From assembly GCA_963781585.1 (NCBI GenBank), contig CAWAGQ010000013.1, forward strand, positions 448,001 through 512,000: DNA of 64,000 bases, in the 5' to 3' direction. This document shows positions 8,513-52,700 of the stretch, piece by piece (the first letter of the stretch is position 1; the number at the start of each line of letters is the position of its first letter). A model generated the notes under the pieces. The model was not told where the DNA came from and made no database searches. It saw nothing but the letters and a program-made list of their open reading frames with translations. Source of the stretch: an uncultured Gemmatimonadaceae bacterium. Its GTDB lineage: Bacteria > Gemmatimonadota > Gemmatimonadetes > Gemmatimonadales > Gemmatimonadaceae. The position numbers and the translations under genes were made by a program.

Positions 8513-9336
8513 TGTACCGTTCCCGCGGCGACAGGGTGTTCGACGGTCTGCGGCAGTGGTCGCGCGGCCATTATCGCGGCGCCCAGGGCTCCTGTGAAGA
8601 TCGGTTCCGGCACTGCCTTGACGGTCATGCCGGTGAGCGACTCCAGCGCGCGGAGCACGCCAGGGAAGTACTCGGCCACGCCGCCGCACACCACGATGGG
8701 ATCCTGGAACCCGCCGATCTCGAGGACCCGCTCCGCGATCGAGTGCATGCAGCCGAACGCCACCTCCTCGCGGGTCGCGCCGTCGCGGAGCCGCTCGAGC
8801 ACGTCGGAGGCGGAGAACACCGAACAGTAGCTGCTCACCTGGGCGGGTCGCTCAGCGGCCGCGGCCAGCTCCTGAAGCCGGAGGGCGCTCACGTCCAGGT
8901 GCCGCGCGGTGAACATGAGGAAACTCCCCACGCCAAGCGCACAGCGGCGAACGCCCCGGGCCTCCAGCTGGTGTCCATCCGCGCTCACCTGGATCACGCG
9001 CGGGTCGCGCCCTCCGATGTTCACCAGCGTCATGGGTTCGCGCAGATGGTGGAATGCTCCCAGGGCGTGGCACGCCGTCTCCGATGCGGTGAGGGTTGCG
9101 TGCGGCACGCAGTTCATGGCGAACCCGGTGGCCCCGACGCCGACGAGGTCGTCCTCGCGCCGCTGCGCGTCGTCGAGCGCGGCCATCAGCACTTCGTAGA
9201 TGCAGGCCTGGAAGTAGCCGCGCGTGGGCAGCACCGCCCGCCCGAGCACACGCCCGTCCTCACTGGCCACCAGCGCCTTCACGCATTCGGTCCCCGCGTC
9301 CACGCCCGCGGCGATCCTCGGTTCAGCCGGTTGCAT
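8509..9336 (-). CDS. Second dehydratase activase, degenerate ATP-binding motifs, both Fe-S Cys retained
   Basis: 'GVDAGTECVKA', 'NIGGRDPR', 'RCALGVGSFL', 'YCSVFS', 'GALGAA'. Confidence 0.8.
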   Translation of the reverse strand: MQPAEPRIAAGVDAGTECVKALVASEDGRVLGRAVLPTRGYFQACIYEVLMAALDDAQRREDDLVGVGATGFAMNCVPHATLTASETACHALGAFHHLREPMTLVNIGGRDPRVIQVSADGHQLEARGVRRCALGVGSFLMFTARHLDVSALRLQELAAAAERPAQVSSYCSVFSASDVLERLRDGATREEVAFGCMHSIAERVLEIGGFQDPIVVCGGVAEYFPGVLRALESLTGMTVKAVPEPIFTGALGAAIMAARPLPQTVEHPVAAGTVQ

Positions 9337-11644
9337 AACCCGTATCTCCCGCCAGCGCCCGTTCCGACGCGCCGGCGTGTTGCGTGCGTTGTTCGACGAA
9401 ATCCGACAGCAGCGCCTGCACGCGTTCGAGCGAGAACAGGCGCGGGTCGTGGGAATCGGCTTCGATCACCAGCGCCGGGATCCCCGTGAGGCGTTGGGCG
9501 CGGACGGCGAGGCCGTACCGCACGTGGCTGGCTTCGGCGGTGGTGCGGCAGTCGTGATAGACTGCCGCGTCGACGCCGAAGCGTTCGAACTCTCGCGCGA
9601 GGTAGGCCGTCTTGTACTGCTCCGAGCGGTTGCCGAACACGCCGGTGTATGCCTCCGCCATGCTCGCGATCGGGTCGTGCGGACCGAGGCCCTTCAGCGC
9701 AAACACACTGCAGAATGTGGAGGCGACGACGGCGGTTCCCGTCCCGGCGAACAGTCCCGACAGGGCGCGCAGCGCACCCCAGATAGGCGGTCCGTCCCAG
9801 TAGACGCGATGAAATTCGCTGGGGACGGCCGCAACACCCTGAGCGACGCGCTGTTCGATTTCGGCCTTGAGCTCGCGGTAGTAGGCGACGGCCTCGGGCG
9901 TGCCGCGCAGCAGGAGCATCGGCGCGAGGTGGGTCACGGCGTCGAAGAAGGTCAGCGGTGCGGGGGTCGCCTGCCCCAGCTCGAGAATCTCGTTCCACAG
10001 CGCCGACGCCTGGGCGCTCCACTCCACGATCTCGGCCAGCCGGTCGGAGTCGAGCGGTCGTCCACTGACTCTGCGGAGTTGAATCGACAGGCGCGTCCAC
10101 TGGTCGATTGCGGCGTCGAGGTCGATCCGCTCGAGGTCGTGGAGCGCGGTCGGTGGATGCAGTCCGACGACCGGCACGCCATAGTGAGCGCCGTAATACT
10201 CGAACCAGCGACGCAGCTCGTGTCCGGTGTTGGTGCTGTACACCGCGACGTCGGGGCGGGGCGGTCCCTTGATGCCGTGGGCGGTCACGAGCGGGCTGCT
10301 CCCCTCCAGCAACGCGCCGACGTCGGCGCGCATGGCGGCGCTGGCGAACTGCGAGAACCCCTCGGCCGTGGCCCGGGCGATGAGCGGCGCCGCCTGACGA
10401 GTGGCACCGATCAGGGCGGCGTGGTTCTCCGGAAAGTACGGCAGCATGTCGAGGGCCCGAATGATCTCCACCGGGCCGAGCCCCGAGCAGGCCGCCACTT
10501 TCCGGTCGGGGTCATCCGACGCGGCCTCGACATCGAGATAGTACGCGTGGATCAGCTCCTTCAGGCGGCGGGTGGATTCGAGCCGCGGTCCGACGAACGG
10601 CAGACCGGCGTCGGCCCCTCTCGCTGTCGGCCGGGACGGCGCCCTCGGCCGGGCACGGTCGCCGCCATGCGCGGCGCCCGCGTCGAGCCCCAATCGTCGC
10701 GCGAGCTCCTGCTTGTTGAGAAACTTCTGGCGCTCACGGGAGTGGATGAAGTGGACGATCGCCGCGTTATGCGGCGCCGTCAGCCCCAGCCGGCGCGCCT
10801 CGGCCACGATCGCGCCGTTGAGCGCGTCCACTTCCGTGCGCGTGCCGCGGGACAGGTCCTGCCACATCGACGGCCGGTTCTTCGCCAGCGCTTTCAGCGA
10901 TCCGATGATCGGACGGAACGGATCCTCCTCGTCGACGATCGGGACGCCTCGCGCCCGCATCACGGCGATGATCTCCATGGCGAGATCGCGCATGAACGCG
11001 AGCAGCTCGTCGTCGCCGAGGATTTCGCGGCACGTCAGCCCGGTGAGCGCCGAGGTCGGGTTCACCACCGCGTTGTGCAGGAGCTTCTGCCAGACGGCGT
11101 GATCGACGTTGTCGACCACGGTCGTCTCGAGCCCGGCCCGCCGGAACATCGCGCCGATGGCCTCGATCTCGGGCGTGACGGTGCCGGCCATGGGCGCGAT
11201 CTGGACCGGCTTGATCCCGGCGCGGTAGTGCAGGCGGCTCGGACCGGCGTGCTGGATGCTGTGGTACGTGATGCCGCACAACACATGGTCCGGGGCCACG
11301 TGGCGCGCGATGGCCTCCACGTTGCCGATGCCGTTCTGCATCGAGAGGAACCAGGTGCCCGGATGAACGACCCCCATCACCGCCTGCACCGCGTCCTCGG
11401 TCTGATAGGTCTTGGTCGCGATGAAGACCAGGTCGAACGGCGCCGCACCCTCGACGGTGGTCACCGCCCGCACCGGATAGCAGCTCTCCTCCTCGCCCAC
11501 CCGGGTGATCGACAGACCGGATTCGTTCAGGAGCTGCACGCGGGCCTTGTTCACCTCGAGGAGCGTGACGTCCTCGCCATCGCGCGTCAGCAGAGCTCCC
11601 ACCAGCCCGCCCAGGGCGCCGGCACCCACGATCACGATTCGCAT
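9323..11644 (-). CDS. Fusion: ketopantoate reductase (PanE/ApbA) domain + 2-hydroxyacyl-CoA dehydratase-like domain
   Basis: N-half 'GAGALG', 'QNGIG', 'WQKLLHNAVVNP', 'SMWQDL', 'TEVDALNG'. C-half 'FPENHAA', 'WDGPPIWG', 'HDCRT', 'EADSHDPR'. One continuous 773-aa ORF with a Pro/Arg/Ala linker. Confidence 0.85.
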   Translation of the reverse strand: MRIVIVGAGALGGLVGALLTRDGEDVTLLEVNKARVQLLNESGLSITRVGEEESCYPVRAVTTVEGAAPFDLVFIATKTYQTEDAVQAVMGVVHPGTWFLSMQNGIGNVEAIARHVAPDHVLCGITYHSIQHAGPSRLHYRAGIKPVQIAPMAGTVTPEIEAIGAMFRRAGLETTVVDNVDHAVWQKLLHNAVVNPTSALTGLTCREILGDDELLAFMRDLAMEIIAVMRARGVPIVDEEDPFRPIIGSLKALAKNRPSMWQDLSRGTRTEVDALNGAIVAEARRLGLTAPHNAAIVHFIHSRERQKFLNKQELARRLGLDAGAAHGGDRARPRAPSRPTARGADAGLPFVGPRLESTRRLKELIHAYYLDVEAASDDPDRKVAACSGLGPVEIIRALDMLPYFPENHAALIGATRQAAPLIARATAEGFSQFASAAMRADVGALLEGSSPLVTAHGIKGPPRPDVAVYSTNTGHELRRWFEYYGAHYGVPVVGLHPPTALHDLERIDLDAAIDQWTRLSIQLRRVSGRPLDSDRLAEIVEWSAQASALWNEILELGQATPAPLTFFDAVTHLAPMLLLRGTPEAVAYYRELKAEIEQRVAQGVAAVPSEFHRVYWDGPPIWGALRALSGLFAGTGTAVVASTFCSVFALKGLGPHDPIASMAEAYTGVFGNRSEQYKTAYLAREFERFGVDAAVYHDCRTTAEASHVRYGLAVRAQRLTGIPALVIEADSHDPRLFSLERVQALLSDFVEQRTQHAGASERALAGDTGYATG

Positions 11645-22516: not shown

Positions 22517-23787
22517 GCGGTCTTCCCCAGACGACGCGCGTCGATCATCTGGAAGTAGCTCTCGAGACGGTTCTTGATGTTCGCCGCCGAGAAGTAGCGC
22601 GGATCCACCAGGTCCGACTCGATGAACGCCCCCGGTATTCCGGTCCGCTTCTCGACTTCCCGCAGGATCACGAGCTGCCCCGCGGAGAACGAATTGCACG
22701 ACTTCACCGAATTGATCAGGAATCCGTCAGCGTCGTACTCGCGCACGTAGTTCGAGAGCATGTCGATTCGCGACGGCAGGTTGAGGTTCGTGTAGCAGCC
22801 GCTGCAGTAGTCAGCCAGCGTGCCGAGCGGATCGGCGGCATTGTGGCGGAATCCGAAATCGTAGGTCCCGCCCACCTTCGTATAGGTGGAGGCGACCACC
22901 ACCGCAGCTTCGTCGGTGAACATCTTCCAGAAGTCGCGGAAGTGGGTCCAGTTGGGCGGTCCCTCGACCACCAGCCGATACCGCTGGTCGTTGAGCGGCC
23001 CGTCGGGAGTGACCGGTCCCAGTCCCGATGCCACACGCGCGTCGATCTCCTCTCGCAGCGCGCGATAGTACTCGACGCCTTCCGGCGTTCCGCGAAAGGC
23101 ACTGAAGATCGGCCCGACGTAGTACACGGTGCCGAAGTACCCATCGATCGGACTCGGCTTGTGCTTCGCCGACTGCAGCACCGCAACGAGGTCGTCCTCC
23201 GCCTGTGCGGCGAGCGACAGTCCCGCCCGGAGCTTGTCCTCATCGTACCTGCGGCCGGTGGCGCGCTCGAGTGCGGGGATCACCTGCTCGCGAAGCTGCC
23301 GCAGCATGTACTCGCGGTGCTCGGGCTCGAGCTTGCCGTCGCCCTGATAGGGCACGTGGAAGAACACCGCCGGACAGTCGTACTCCTGGCGCAACAGCTC
23401 GAACCACTTCATGAACGTGTAGCAGCCGGTGTACGACAGCAGAAGCAGATCGGGCTTGGGCAGCCTCGTGCCCGCCGGACTGATGTTGCCCGATTTCAGC
23501 ATGCCGATGTCGCACTTCACATAGGTGCACACGTCCTCCGAGTGCCCGGCGCGCTCGGCCTCGGCGATGTAGTCGCCCGAGAGCTTCCGCATCCCCGACT
23601 GCAGCGCGTTGATCTCGGGCAGCACGGGGAGTGCGCCGAACGAGCGAATCAGCTCGGTGAGATTGCCCGGTACGAACGTGTAGACCACCGGCTGGCCCGT
23701 CTCCGGCGCCTGTTCCAGCTCGGCGAAGTGGCGGGCGATCATCTCCTTCTGGAGCACCATCGAGCGGTCCTTCTGGGCCACGGTCAT
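22513..23787 (-). CDS. bcrB: Benzoyl-CoA reductase subunit B
   Basis: 'TFVPGNL.EL', 'HSEDVCTYVK.DIG', 'YTGC', 'KSCNSFSAGQ', 'DLVDPRYFS'. Confidence 0.93.
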   Translation of the reverse strand: MTVAQKDRSMVLQKEMIARHFAELEQAPETGQPVVYTFVPGNLTELIRSFGALPVLPEINALQSGMRKLSGDYIAEAERAGHSEDVCTYVKCDIGMLKSGNISPAGTRLPKPDLLLLSYTGCYTFMKWFELLRQEYDCPAVFFHVPYQGDGKLEPEHREYMLRQLREQVIPALERATGRRYDEDKLRAGLSLAAQAEDDLVAVLQSAKHKPSPIDGYFGTVYYVGPIFSAFRGTPEGVEYYRALREEIDARVASGLGPVTPDGPLNDQRYRLVVEGPPNWTHFRDFWKMFTDEAAVVVASTYTKVGGTYDFGFRHNAADPLGTLADYCSGCYTNLNLPSRIDMLSNYVREYDADGFLINSVKSCNSFSAGQLVILREVEKRTGIPGAFIESDLVDPRYFSAANIKNRLESYFQMIDARRLGKTA

Positions 23788-24954
23788 CAGGCGGTCCCCC
23801 AGAGTTTTATGGAATCGGAGAAGGTCCCCGCCTGTTCGCGGAATTGCTGGAATTGCCCGGTGTTCTCCGCGTACTTGAAGGCGATGCACGGGATGCCGGA
23901 CTGCTCCGCGCCGGCGCGCAGCATCGGCTGGTCGAGCAACGACGGATCGCAGAAGCTCGGCGCCGCGAAGATGATGCCGTCGGCCCGGGCCGCATCGACC
24001 CGTTCTTTCATCAGGCGTTTCTTGCCGCCTGCGTCGCCTTCATACAGGATCGAGGTCCGCAGCTCCGTATGTACGAACGACTCGGCCAGCGCGCGCACCG
24101 GGTCGTCGTCCAGGGCCACCGGGCGGGTGAGAAACCGATTCCCCAGCATGAAGTCGTCGTCGACGATGTAGCACCCGGCGCGTTCGATCGACATGATGAG
24201 ACCGAGCGGAGGCTGCTCGCAGAACGCCCCCGCAATCACTACCCGGCTGTTGTCGCGCGGGCGGCGCGGATCCGCTTCCACCGCGGTCAGAAAGCGACGC
24301 GCCATCGCCAGGAACTCGTCAGGCGGCACGACCTCGCCGGCCCGAAGCAACAGGTACAATTCCTCGGTCGACACATCCCAGGGACGATCCCGCCGCACGC
24401 GGTACAACGCGCGTATCATCTCCCGCATCTCGTTGTAGACCGCGATCGAACGGCGGAGGTCGTCGTCCGACGCGGGCTGACCGGCCACCCGCTCGAAGAT
24501 CCTGCCGCAGCCGCCGCAGCTCGCTCTCCCAGAAGTCGGCTGCCGCCGCGGGATCGGGCACCTGTGGTACGTCGAGGTAGCGCACGTACAGATCGGGGTA
24601 GAGCAACTTCCAGATCCCCGACAGATTGCGGATGACGTCGCAGGTGGAAGGGAAGAGGACCGCCGAGAGCATGTCGAGTCGACCCGACTGCGCCAGCTCG
24701 ATCACCGACCGCGGCAGGTGACAGATATACGATTGATAGAAGGCGTCCCCGCGGATGATCTCGAGGCGGTCGCCGCCGCCGTGAATCCCCACCGGGAGAA
24801 ACCCGCAGGCGTGCAGGATCTCGCGCGGCGCGTAGACGGGGAGGTAGCCACCCGCCTTGCGACCGGGATGCTCGCCCAGCCACCGCCTGACCGCGGTGAA
24901 ATCCAGGTCCTCGTACAGATCCCGCGCCCAATCGACGATCTCAGCGCGCGTCAC
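23787..24954 (-). CDS. bcrC: Benzoyl-CoA reductase subunit C, split by a +1 frameshift at ~24496 (probable sequence error)
   Basis: N-part 'GDAFYQSYICHLPRS', 'FPSTCDVIRNL'; C-part 'FCEQPP', 'SFCDP', 'KYAENTGQFQ'. Removing one A at 24496-24497 gives ...RQDLERVAGQ... and a 388-aa ORF from GTG 24954 (GGAGG RBS). Confidence 0.88.
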
Positions 24955-32449: not shown

Positions 32450-32575
32450 TCGCCTTCTATCGGTCGGCATGCGTTGGAATCTAGGCGTCCGCTGCGTGGC
32501 GCACAGCACCTCCTTGTGAACTGCCAGGCCGGAGCCGTGTGCGGGAATCCATGCTCAGCGCGCCGGCGAATTCGT

Positions 32576-39338: not shown

Positions 39339-40340
39339 TCACAGCTTCAGCTTCACGAGATCCACACCGGCTTCCTTCAGCATTCGCACCGCGGTGTCGT
39401 TGAGCGGATAGGCCTCGTTGTAGACCACCCGCCGGATTCCGGCATTGATGATCATCTTGCTGCACATCAGGCAGGGCGAGTAGGTGGTGTACAGCGTGGC
39501 GTCCTTGATGGCGATGCCGTGATAGGACGCCTGCACGATGGCGTTCTCCTCCCCGTGTGAGCAGAGGCACTCCTCGAGGTTCCTGCCGCTCTCGCTGAAG
39601 CCGTTGCAGCGCGGGCATCCCCCCTCGTTGCAGTTCTTCACGCCCCGCGGCGTGCCGTTGTAGCCTGTGCTGATGATGCGCCGGTCGGAGACGACCACCG
39701 CCGCCACCTGTCGCTTCATGCAGTTGCTGCGCGCGGCCACCTGTCTGGCGATGTCCATGAAGTACTGGTCCCACGAAGGCCGGGAGAACGACACCCGAAG
39801 TTCCTGCAGCGCGGCCCCCAGCTTGTCGGCGAATTCCTCCAGGGTGCCGCTGTTCTCGATCGTGCGGTTGGCCAACCGTTCCGTTTCCAGGAGCTGCTGG
39901 GCGGCGGCGTTGCTGCTGGCGAACTCGCGTTCCTCCTGGCGGATGAAGTCCTGTAGCGTTTGCGCGTCGCCTGCGCGCTTCCGCGCCATGGATCGTTCGA
40001 ACCGGGCCTCGAGCGGGGCGAAGATGTGGAAGAGCGAGAATGATCCCGCTTTCTTGAGCGCCATGGCTTCCGCTGGATGACGGATGCTGTCCACAGCGTA
40101 GTTCCTGTCGGACTGCATCCGCGCGACGGTCAGTTGCGCCAGTGCCGCCGGACCATGGCGCTCGCGCAGCTCGTTGCCCAAGGCAGTCAGGTTCTCTCGC
40201 GTCTCCGGCAGGCCCCGTTGCCTCGCTTCCTCGCGAATGACGTCCGACAGCGAGAGGGAGGAGAACCCCTTGGTGGCAAGCACCTCGCATGCCGTCGTTT
40301 TGCCGCCGGCGTTCCTGCCCGTGAGTCCGATGATGATCAT
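39339..40340 (-). CDS. P-loop kinase-like domain fused to dCMP deaminase
   Basis: 'IGLTGRNAGGKTT', 'DSIRHP.E'; then 'RPSWDQYFM', 'TGYNGTP', 'HGEENA', 'PCLMC'. Confidence 0.88.
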   Translation of the reverse strand: MIIIGLTGRNAGGKTTACEVLATKGFSSLSLSDVIREEARQRGLPETRENLTALGNELRERHGPAALAQLTVARMQSDRNYAVDSIRHPAEAMALKKAGSFSLFHIFAPLEARFERSMARKRAGDAQTLQDFIRQEEREFASSNAAAQQLLETERLANRTIENSGTLEEFADKLGAALQELRVSFSRPSWDQYFMDIARQVAARSNCMKRQVAAVVVSDRRIISTGYNGTPRGVKNCNEGGCPRCNGFSESGRNLEECLCSHGEENAIVQASYHGIAIKDATLYTTYSPCLMCSKMIINAGIRRVVYNEAYPLNDTAVRMLKEAGVDLVKLKL

Positions 40341-40495
40341 GGTGGCGTTCGGTGTCCCGTCAATGCGTGAAAAGATGCTGTGCACGCATCCTCGCGTAAC
40401 CCCGGCGGACCGCGGGCAATCAGAGAGAAGACGGCTGGCCGCGACAGACTGGTCGTGCGCCGAGATTAACTGTCGGTAGTACTGGCCTTTAGTAT

Positions 40496-50332: not shown

Positions 50333-50848
50333 TCAGTTACCAGCTGGCTCGAGATTGGAGAAGTGCGAGTGGACGATCTTCCAGCCGCCATCCCGCTTCT
50401 CCAGCACGAGCGTAACTACGGCCGGCGGAGTCGGCTGGAACTGCGCCGCGATGTCCTTGGGAGTGTCGGCGGGAAGGATCGTCGTGGTGTAGCGATAGAA
50501 GCTCGCCACCGCCACCGACCCGTTGCCGTAGAGCTTGATCAGTCGGTCGCGGTCCTCCGTGAAGGTCCGGATTCCGGGAACGAGCTTCTTGAGTTGATCC
50601 ATTCCCGCCTGTTGAATCCGCATGTTCGCCGCCTGGTCGGTGCGACGCCCGGCTCCATTGCCGATCCAGACGCGGTCGGCGGTCATCAGCTGTGCCTGGC
50701 CGCTCATGTCCATCCCATCTTCGAGAGCGCCGTAGTGATCGATCAGCTGATTCACCGCGTCGATGTCCGCCTGACGCTGCGCGTTGGCGAGTGTCGGAGC
50801 ACCGAACCCCAGGACCACGGCCAGGGCACTATGCAGGATCGTTCTCAT
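50333..50848 (-). CDS. Exported SnoaL/NTF2-like protein
   Basis: Signal peptide 'MRTILHSALAVVLGFGAPTLANA', C-terminal 'TLVLEKRDGGWKIVHSHFS'; GGAGGAG RBS. Confidence 0.8.
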   Translation of the reverse strand: MRTILHSALAVVLGFGAPTLANAQRQADIDAVNQLIDHYGALEDGMDMSGQAQLMTADRVWIGNGAGRRTDQAANMRIQQAGMDQLKKLVPGIRTFTEDRDRLIKLYGNGSVAVASFYRYTTTILPADTPKDIAAQFQPTPPAVVTLVLEKRDGGWKIVHSHFSNLEPAGN

Positions 50849-51055
50849 GGACTTCTCCTCCGCCGTTGAGGGTTGGTTGAGTACATCCTGGAATGGGTGC
50901 TGCGGCTGGCCTCTGGCGCGCGCGTACGACGCCCCGGACCCCTGGCCCGCCGGTTTCCGTGTTCGCTGCGCTCTCGAACGTGCGTATCGACGGCGCGAAG
51001 CCAGTGCGCGGGCTAACCGGTTGACGCGCGGCACCGCTCTCGCGGCTATCGGTCG

Positions 51056-51124
51056 CCCGACCTCGTGCTCGATGCGGTGGCGGTTGGCCAGGACGGCGGC
51101 GAGGCGGGTAGCGATCTCACCCAT
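51056..51124 (-). pseudogene. N-terminal remnant of a Ser/Thr kinase gene
   Basis: 'MGEIATRLAAVLANRHRIEHEVG' parallels 'MADPTDRLSAALADRYRIERELG' at 45412; similarity stops before the Gly loop. Confidence 0.5.
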
Positions 51125-51291
51125 CTTGCCCAACATACGGCGCCTCTCGCGCAATGTCGAACCGAGGGCCTCGCCTTTGTCCGATTGGTGGGTGCTCGGA
51201 TCACCGTTGCCAACGCCGATGAGTCGGCCGCTGCCGGTGACAATCGCGTGATCATCGCGCTCTTCCGGATGTGCGGCGAGGCGCGGCCCAC

Positions 51292-51338
51292 AAAAACGGT
51301 CGAGGTCCAGCGTGCTCCCTTGTGCACGCTGGACCTCG
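51292..51338 (-). terminator. Intrinsic terminator: 15-bp perfect stem, 8-nt loop, followed by ACCGTTTTT
   Basis: CGAGGTCCAGCGTGC (51301-51315) pairs with GCACGCTGGACCTCG (51324-51338). Confidence 0.7.
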
Positions 51339-51391
51339 CCTTCTAAATGACCGATCGGCGCAGATGCGTCGGTCAGCCGACTAATGAAGCG

Positions 51392-51436
51392 CTAGCGGCT
51401 TCCGGCGATCCACGCCGTAGTAGGGTCACTGGACAC
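51392..51436 (-). CDS. 14-aa small ORF MSSDPTTAWIAGSR behind a 15-nt extended Shine-Dalgarno (rreB-like small mRNA)
   Basis: AAGGAGGTGATCCAG (51450-51436) runs into the GTG start; TAG at 51394-51392; own promoter and terminator. Confidence 0.62.
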   Translation of the reverse strand: MSSDPTTAWIAGSR

Positions 51437-51479
51437 TGGATCACCTCCTTGTTGTAGGGTGGAAGCGAAAGGGCGTTTC

Positions 51480-51508
51480 ACGATACAACGGCGACACGCC
51501 GGTCTCAA
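51480..51508 (-). promoter_or_regulatory. Sigma70-type promoter TTGAGA-N17-TATCGT for the small mRNA
   Basis: -35 at 51508-51503, -10 at 51485-51480. Confidence 0.55.
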
Positions 51509-51543
51509 CCCGGGTACAGCCTTGGGGGCGGCGGCCGCCCGTT

Positions 51544-52530
<987 letters not shown>

Positions 52531-52700
52531 TGCGACCTCCATACGAACGTTGACGTCCCGCGTCGAGCGCGACGTCCCTGGTTCCGATTCCCCGCGCTGC
52601 GATTCGACTACTTCGGCGCGGGCCCCGCGATCCACCGCGGCGGGCGATCGATGCACCCTGTGTGACGTTAGAGGACGCGCAGTCCGCGAGGTACCCCCGG

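Follow-up and report, generated by a model that had tools for sequence, protein, structure and literature searches.

A predicted small mRNA whose Shine-Dalgarno sequence spans the 16S 3' tail, outside the known rreB and CC2171 families

On the minus strand of the 64-kb stretch of DNA analysed here (the window), an intergenic gap contains a 15-nt string, AAGGAGGTGATCCAG, complementary to the conserved 16S 3' tail and, the window itself being without an rRNA gene, presumably to that of this genome. The string ends in the first base of a GTG codon that opens a frame of 14 codons. A sequence-only reading had interpreted the locus as a stand-alone small mRNA resembling rreB of Bradyrhizobiaceae, located in a distant phylum. 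This raises the question of whether the element is such an RNA, or a small-protein gene, an untranslated RNA, part of a neighbouring transcript or a product of chance. Few natural mRNAs are known to pair with the whole anti-Shine-Dalgarno tail, and the rre RNAs belong to these few.

Layout of the element and its surroundings

The element occupies positions 51508–51292 of the minus strand, and we identified the following features in it and in the flanking DNA.

51544–52560, minus strand: upstream aldo/keto reductase gene (Pfam PF00248, E 6e-78; stop codon 51546–51544)
51503–51508, minus strand: -35-like hexamer TTGAGA (promoter scan, prediction only)
51480–51485, minus strand: -10-like hexamer TATCGT (promoter scan; transcription start near 51478–51472 implied from spacing alone)
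Between the -10-like site and the Shine-Dalgarno sequence, minus strand: C- and A-rich leader, about 23 nt long (sequence reading)
51461–51468, minus strand: leader segment UCGCUUCC, rich in pyrimidines and paired in fold predictions with the Shine-Dalgarno core GGAGGUGA
51436–51450, minus strand: extended Shine-Dalgarno sequence of 15 nt, its final base being the first base of the start codon
51392–51436, minus strand: short open reading frame (sORF) with GTG start, 14 codons, peptide MSSDPTTAWIAGSR, stop TAG at 51394–51392
51346–51430, minus strand: central structured domain, closed in the minimum-free-energy fold by the helix AGUGACC (51430–51424)/GGUCAUU (51352–51346)
51404–51412, minus strand: anti-Shine-Dalgarno-like segment UGGAUCGCC within the sORF, able to pair with part of the Shine-Dalgarno sequence, GGUGAUCCA
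51375–51369 and 51354–51348, minus strand: hairpin arms TGACCGA and TCGGTCA (sequence reading)
51292–51338, minus strand: intrinsic terminator, with a 15-bp stem (51338–51301), ACCG and the T tract TTTTT (51296–51292)
51160–51132, minus strand: further promoter-like site (promoter scan)
50333–50848, minus strand: downstream gene for a secreted SnoaL-like protein, likely start 50848

The hexamers TTGAGA and TATCGT, which the sequence-only reading had named as a promoter, are present as sequence on the minus strand with a 17-nt spacer, and their promoter role is a prediction. The pair scores 9/12, and the scan, which covered 2 kb, found two such sites where shuffles predict 0.2. The 15-mer overlapping the GTG start agreed base for base with the earlier description, the 14-codon frame reads as claimed, and the 15-bp terminator with its T tract was recovered by our terminator scan. 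The predicted transcript runs from about 51473 to 51292 and thus has the length of roughly 180 nt that had been proposed. The hairpin was confirmed only in part: both arms exist, but the minimum-free-energy fold pairs GGUCAUU with AGUGACC instead.

Chance does not account for the 15-mer. Its only exact match in the 64-kb window is the element, and three sites match it with up to two mismatches, against 0.08 expected from shuffles. The second-longest sub-match to the string anywhere in the window is 10 nt, and Shine-Dalgarno-like matches ahead of the window's ordinary genes reach 8–9 nt. A perfect 15-bp duplex with the tail is predicted at -27.2 kcal/mol, compared with -7.0 kcal/mol for GGAGG/CCUCC. 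The sequence-only reading had named an origin as an rRNA operon fragment among the results that would overturn it. We considered this origin and ruled it out, as an Rfam search identified no rRNA gene or other rRNA match in the 64-kb window. In addition, the plus-strand bases flanking the 15-mer do not, by our reading, continue like the end of 16S. The complementarity that can be claimed is 15 nt, the base 5' of the 15-mer being a C (51451); the criterion in the available text of Hahn et al (2016; PMC5711450) is 16–17 nt of complementarity to the 16S 3' end.

The same string is partly represented elsewhere in the window. At 32478–32515 (minus strand), just downstream of an MFS transporter gene, a strong Shine-Dalgarno sequence, ACAAGGAGGTG, contains 9 nt of it, and 2 nt further on a GTG opens a frame of 7 codons (MRHAADA); no terminator was seen at this site.

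Between the reductase stop codon and the element, the terminator scan identified no terminator-like site, and a GC hairpin in this interval was rejected as the reductase gene's terminator because its z of 0.06 does not set it apart from shuffles. Transcription of the reductase gene may therefore read through into the element, and the stand-alone character proposed earlier, although the element has its own predicted promoter-like site and terminator, is a prediction. Downstream, about 450 nt (50849–51291) separate the terminator from the start of the SnoaL-like gene; this interval contains no convincing gene, and Rfam matches in it are at chance level. No Pfam family was found in the two 93-aa ORFs that overlap the element. 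The predicted genes of the window have a GC3 of 0.78–0.93. No ORF with GC3 of at least 0.78 lies within 51155–52700 according to a crude gene call based on that threshold, which also missed the aldo/keto reductase gene; the upstream extension of the SnoaL-like ORF alone reaches 51154. Beyond the TAG of the sORF, its reading frame has no further stop for 352 codons and extends into the SnoaL-like gene (50333–51391, minus strand). We treated this as a coincidence in GC-rich DNA, the Arg-rich intervening translation having a non-coding appearance.

The earlier placement of the locus in a phylum distant from the Alphaproteobacteria is plausible. Two lineage-typical proteins of the window, a duplicated permease of the ADOP family (TIGR03434, cut-off 622 bits, score 840 bits) and a Ser/Thr kinase with repeat domains, find their best matches in a plasmid collection on two megaplasmids of Gemmatirosa kalamazoonensis (Gemmatimonadota), with 38–44% identity and 11–31 matching places per record. 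The best plasmid matches of other window proteins are scattered over Nostoc, Sphingobium and Actinomyces. This pattern would fit a lineage with few entries among plasmids, such as Gemmatimonadota or a neighbour, rather than the heavily represented Alphaproteobacteria.

The window also carries a gene cluster for anaerobic aromatic degradation (7220–27230), which is unusual if the genome is Gemmatimonadota-like. The cluster encodes subunits of a class I benzoyl-CoA reductase (573 bits for the A-like subunit and 342 bits for D), a 4-hydroxybenzoyl-CoA reductase in which alpha and gamma are fused, relatives of dienoyl-CoA hydratase and ring hydrolase, a thiolase and a FadB/FadJ-like protein. A BcrC-like ORF (23787–24488, minus strand) covers only profile positions 155–380 of 380 and is truncated, frameshifted or mis-called by the crude gene call. 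In a 773-aa ORF (9323–11644, minus strand), one half is like 2-dehydropantoate reductase and the other like BcrB/HadB. Elsewhere, the ORF at 39339–40385 (minus strand) resembles anti-phage dCTP deaminases (NF041025, E 1e-40; score 140 bits, cut-off 400) and includes a ComEB-like deaminase half.

Comparison with rreB, CC2171 and rreR

The only source on the rre class that we found in the literature searched is the report of Hahn et al (2016; PMC5711450). According to its available text, rreB of Bradyrhizobiaceae is a 165-nt mRNA with a 17-nt Shine-Dalgarno sequence that takes in the GTG start codon's initial base and with a 14-codon sORF; it co-sediments with 30S subunits and is weakly translated. 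The account of rreB in the sequence-only reading (Shine-Dalgarno sequence, GTG start, 14-aa product, 30S binding) matches this description. The same text reports rre RNAs in four alphaproteobacterial orders only and places the last complementary base at the first base of GTG, rarely ATG; the class it defines associates strongly with 30S subunits, and the Shine-Dalgarno sequence and the GTG keep its translation low.

The window element and rreB share the junction AAGGAGGTGATCCAGTG, the GTG start, a frame of 14 codons, a terminator and a similar size (165 nt in rreB, about 180 nt predicted in the window). Both also contain an sORF-internal GGAUCGCC able to pair with the Shine-Dalgarno sequence, and their leaders are alike over about 20 nt (CUUCCACC...ACAAC in the window, CUUCCACCAACAAC in the rreB locus L065). 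The complementarity is 17 nt in rreB but 15 nt in the window, since no GA stands ahead of the 15-mer there. The peptides are unrelated: the rreB product (MS.xKRCHLAGIAR) and that of the window agree only in length, in beginning with MS and in ending with R. We built a covariance model from eight rreB loci. The five training members included in the search scored 173–189 bits and other alphaproteobacterial families 10–30; the window element, searched with filters off, scored 10.7, and the model also gave an unrelated match of 9.3 bits 200 nt from the element. Membership in the rreB family was thus rejected.

Rfam gave no match at gathering score in the whole 64-kb window. Below threshold, the Caulobacter sRNA CC2171 (RF01867) aligned to the element over its whole length (model positions 1–159) with 29.6 bits against a gathering score of 75 (E 1e-4, with 400–800 nt searched), and we rejected membership in this family as well. 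The two have, in the same order, the Shine-Dalgarno sequence, GUG-UC, a 7-bp closing helix (AGUGACC/GGUCAUU in the window) and a terminator; the CC2171 sORF has 21–22 codons compared with 14 in the window. The CC2171 consensus opens with the same Shine-Dalgarno sequence and an MSHC frame, and from this we conclude that CC2171 is the Caulobacterales form of the rre class. The model gave 120 bits in Caulobacter, 91 in Brevundimonas, 42 at one rreB locus and 40 at one rreR locus. Among 16 non-alphaproteobacterial loci, seven scored 22.6–32.1 bits and nine had no match up to E = 1. Much of the window's score probably comes from the Shine-Dalgarno string and a generic terminator; it lies within the range that these two features produce and is therefore no independent proof of homology.

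The rreR RNAs of Rhodobacterales, as described in the available text of Hahn et al (2016; PMC5711450), resemble the window element in having an extended Shine-Dalgarno sequence that ends in GTG with the junction AAGGAGGTGATCCAGTG, a tiny ORF and a terminator, but differ in their 18 codons and conserved peptide (MSR.VLERGVGT). The segment TGG[AG]T occurs in 1 of 27 sORFs of 18 codons among the matches of the genome scan described below.

The element therefore lies outside the known sequence families rreB and CC2171. It has two of three alphaproteobacterial hallmarks, namely a leader with CAAC (among the matches listed, in 70 of 86 loci of alphaproteobacterial type and 3 of 27 others) and UC after GUG (84 of 86 and 1 of 27, likewise among the matches listed). 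The third, GA before the Shine-Dalgarno sequence, is missing (present in 70 of 86 and 4 of 27 of the same matches). These hallmarks, the leader likeness and the UGGAUC segment of the window are resemblances and do not amount to a passed family test. The earlier description as rreB-like is supported by the junction, the size class and the CC2171 alignment, which is full-length though below threshold; assignment to either family fails, with 29.6 bits against 75 for CC2171 and 10.7 against 173–189 for rreB.

Recurrence of the layout and predicted folds

A scan of genome contigs for the 17-mer AAGGAGGTGATCCAGTG, a pattern that itself ends in GTG, gave at least 120 loci. Among the 120 matches listed, 113 have a frame of at most 30 codons after the GTG; the other seven comprise six longer ORFs and one locus at a contig end. 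At these six, the 17-mer is the ribosome-binding site of an ORF of normal length (51–192 aa), and two of them, from Flavobacteriia, encode a conserved protein of 82–83 aa. A terminator-like site was identified heuristically within 330 nt at 96 of the 113 short-frame loci listed, compared with 49 of 149 control positions from the same loci. In those 96, the distance from the start of the Shine-Dalgarno sequence to the T tract has a median of 160 nt (interquartile range 143–167); in the window it is 153 nt.

Judged by record titles, 27 of the 113 short-frame loci among the matches listed fall outside Alphaproteobacteria: 11 in Planctomycetota, nine in Acidobacteriota, two each in Krumholzibacteriia and Burkholderiales, and one each in a Fibrobacteraceae MAG, Bradymonadales and Methylomirabilis. 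The non-alphaproteobacterial loci form separate families, with folds conserved within each. At the elements of 16 such loci tested, none gave an Rfam match at gathering level, and as far as our searches of the literature show these 17-mer families are apparently new to print. No locus among the 120 matches listed resembles the window beyond the 17-mer in local alignments of the 150 nt that follow it; the best score was 27, with shuffled queries reaching 28 at the 99.9th percentile and 29 at maximum. A BLAST search of the element against plasmids returned only chance-level matches of 20–37 nt (E of 9).

Three of these families were characterised further. Eight Acidobacteriota loci, several titled Acidiferrales, have a conserved TATA-like box about 55 nt upstream, after which come the 17-mer, an MRYGLR-like frame of 6 codons and a terminator whose 3' side, CUCUCUCCUUU, is predicted to pair with the Shine-Dalgarno sequence. 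Paired changes on both sides were seen in 3 of 38 pairs of this set, and three members tested gave no Rfam match at gathering score. A four-member family with the titles Krumholzibacteriia, Fibrobacteraceae and Acidobacteria has two conserved hairpins, then the 17-mer and then a frame of 14–15 codons. Here 16 of 65 pairs change on both sides, compared with 6.4 ± 1.8 in shuffles (0 of 500 reach 16) and 1–3 in slid controls, in a test that favours this structure because it was derived from the same sequences. Nine Planctomycetota/Phycisphaerae loci, and two more assigned with them, have frames of 9–16 codons, many ending in ..C.KGLR, and a conserved GGGCUGC/GCAGCCC helix; of the 34 pairs in the Phycisphaerae set, both partners differ in 11. 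Two further loci, one titled Cytophagales and the other 'bacterium', carry the Rhodobacterales-type rreR frame (MSRKVLE.., MSRVILESGVGT..), which suggests mis-binned contigs.

The 184-nt predicted transcript of the window folds with -86.3 kcal/mol (z = -6.5 against 200 shuffles), and its minimum-free-energy fold masks the Shine-Dalgarno core. With the assumed transcript start, GGAGGUGA pairs with the leader segment UCGCUUCC at ensemble probabilities of 0.89 to 0.99, and the two A before the core and the UCCAG after it are unpaired in the ensemble. This leader pairing is equalled by 6 of 100 leader shuffles and is thus weakly supported. As a feature of the whole class it was rejected, being found at 13 of 112 loci among the matches listed and only weakly in the window. 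An alternative fold, in which GGUGAUCCA pairs with UGGAUCGCC, lies 3.9 kcal/mol above the minimum and does not involve the terminator. The duplex of UGGAUCGCC with the Shine-Dalgarno sequence is predicted at -17.2 kcal/mol, a value reached by 0 of 50 shuffles, and at three Bradyrhizobium-type rreB loci the internal anti-Shine-Dalgarno-like duplex has -17.5 kcal/mol. Pairing of the Shine-Dalgarno sequence with a downstream segment was likewise rejected as class-wide, since just 28 of 113 loci among the matches listed beat their own shuffles. The motif TGGAT is five-fold enriched in the short sORFs of the matches listed (3.76 per kb, compared with 0.76 per kb in flanks), and the UGGAUC segment of the window fits it.

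Competing explanations and proposed mode of action

An ordinary small-protein gene, with a functional 14-aa peptide and a long Shine-Dalgarno sequence merely for strong initiation, would be consistent with the ideal spacing of 7 nt between GGAGG and GTG. It would also be consistent with the clade-conserved peptides of alphaproteobacterial families, such as MS.xKRCHLAGIAR and the 18-aa MSR.VLERGVGT (available text of Hahn et al, 2016; PMC5711450). However, the window peptide is unlike all 113 sORF peptides among the matches listed, and A or T closes 4 of the 13 codons that follow its start, although GC3 in this genome is near 0.85. The residues that it has in common with other families (W-I-A) are only those encoded by UGGAUCGCC, which points to selection at the RNA level, and we consider this explanation quite unlikely. 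The element might instead bind the 16S 3' tail without being translated, serving as a decoy, as a sensor or as an RNA tethered to the 30S subunit, its short frame being incidental. The strength of the predicted duplex (-27.2 kcal/mol) agrees with this, as do sORFs that vary between families in sequence and from 6 to 27 codons around a fixed 17-mer, the Acidobacteriota family having no more than 6. Nevertheless, the complementarity ends in the start codon at 113 of 113 short-frame loci listed, a count partly imposed by the GTG-ending search pattern. Moreover, in the available text of Hahn et al (2016; PMC5711450) the stability of rreB RNA depends on its start codon and was altered by start-codon replacement. 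The same text reports that rreB overproduction left growth unaffected, which argues against simple ribosome titration. We regard an untranslated RNA as unlikely, although it is the foremost of the alternatives.

It is very unlikely that the element is not a separate gene at all, but the 3' UTR or last cistron of the aldo/keto reductase gene, or the leader or attenuator of the SnoaL-like gene. The missing terminator-like site and the shuffle-level hairpin after the reductase stop codon speak for this explanation, and the sORF frame does stay open from stop to stop (50333–51391) into the SnoaL-like gene. Yet the element has its own promoter-like site. About 450 nt lie between its strong 15-bp terminator and the start at 50848, with the promoter-like site at 51160–51132 between them, and the sORF has no repeated or regulatory codon run. 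The available text of Hahn et al (2016; PMC5711450) states in addition that rre genes outside Bradyrhizobiaceae lack a conserved genomic context. A leader-peptide attenuator in particular was rejected, given the distance to the next gene, the missing codon repeats and an alternative fold that spares the terminator. Chance or decaying sequence, such as what is left of a vanished gene's ribosome-binding site, would be in line with the failure of both covariance models, CC2171 and rreB. Against this stand the exact 15-mer, which is unexpected by chance, its position in an intergenic gap between a promoter-like site and a strong terminator, and an element length like that of the 96 comparable loci among the matches listed; we consider it highly improbable.

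The explanation that we favour as probable is that the element is an rre-type small mRNA, which docks on the 30S subunit via the full anti-Shine-Dalgarno tail and is poorly translated. What the analysis shows is the sequence features with their arrangement and distances, the predicted folds and the return of this layout in other genomes; that the element would be transcribed, bind 30S subunits, be weakly translated and possibly serve a physiological role, we infer. Transcription would run from about 51473 to the terminator (51292), giving an RNA of about 180 nt. Its 15-nt Shine-Dalgarno sequence would pair with the entire single-stranded 16S 3' tail, and we propose that this whole-tail pairing would produce docking on the 30S subunit far tighter than that of an ordinary mRNA, with GUG held at the start site. 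By analogy with rreB, over-tight pairing and the GUG start would result in weak translation of the 14 codons, and the lifetime of the RNA would be tied to events on the ribosome. The segments that mimic the 16S tail, UCGCUUCC in the leader and UGGAUCGCC in the sORF, may gate access to the Shine-Dalgarno sequence.

We further suggest, as a possibility that we hold somewhat short of probable, that small mRNAs with a full-tail Shine-Dalgarno sequence are a class across many phyla with a general job on the 30S subunit, and not an alphaproteobacterial curiosity. In that case, RNA families that are not related to one another, from Acidobacteriota, Planctomycetota, Krumholzibacteriota and Burkholderiales as well as the Gemmatimonadota-like genome of the window, would keep AAGGAGGUGAUCCAG-UG, a tiny frame and a terminator, and their general job might be, for example, to report or buffer subunits that are free or the 16S tail's state. 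An alphaproteobacterial-type leader in a non-alphaproteobacterial gene context could also reflect transfer between phyla. With a probable member in what is plausibly another phylum, and with more than a fifth of the short-frame matches listed bearing non-alphaproteobacterial titles (27 of 113), the class looks general and thus worthier of functional study. The layout also provides a simple search key that may bring to light tiny genes of this kind that gene callers and Rfam miss.
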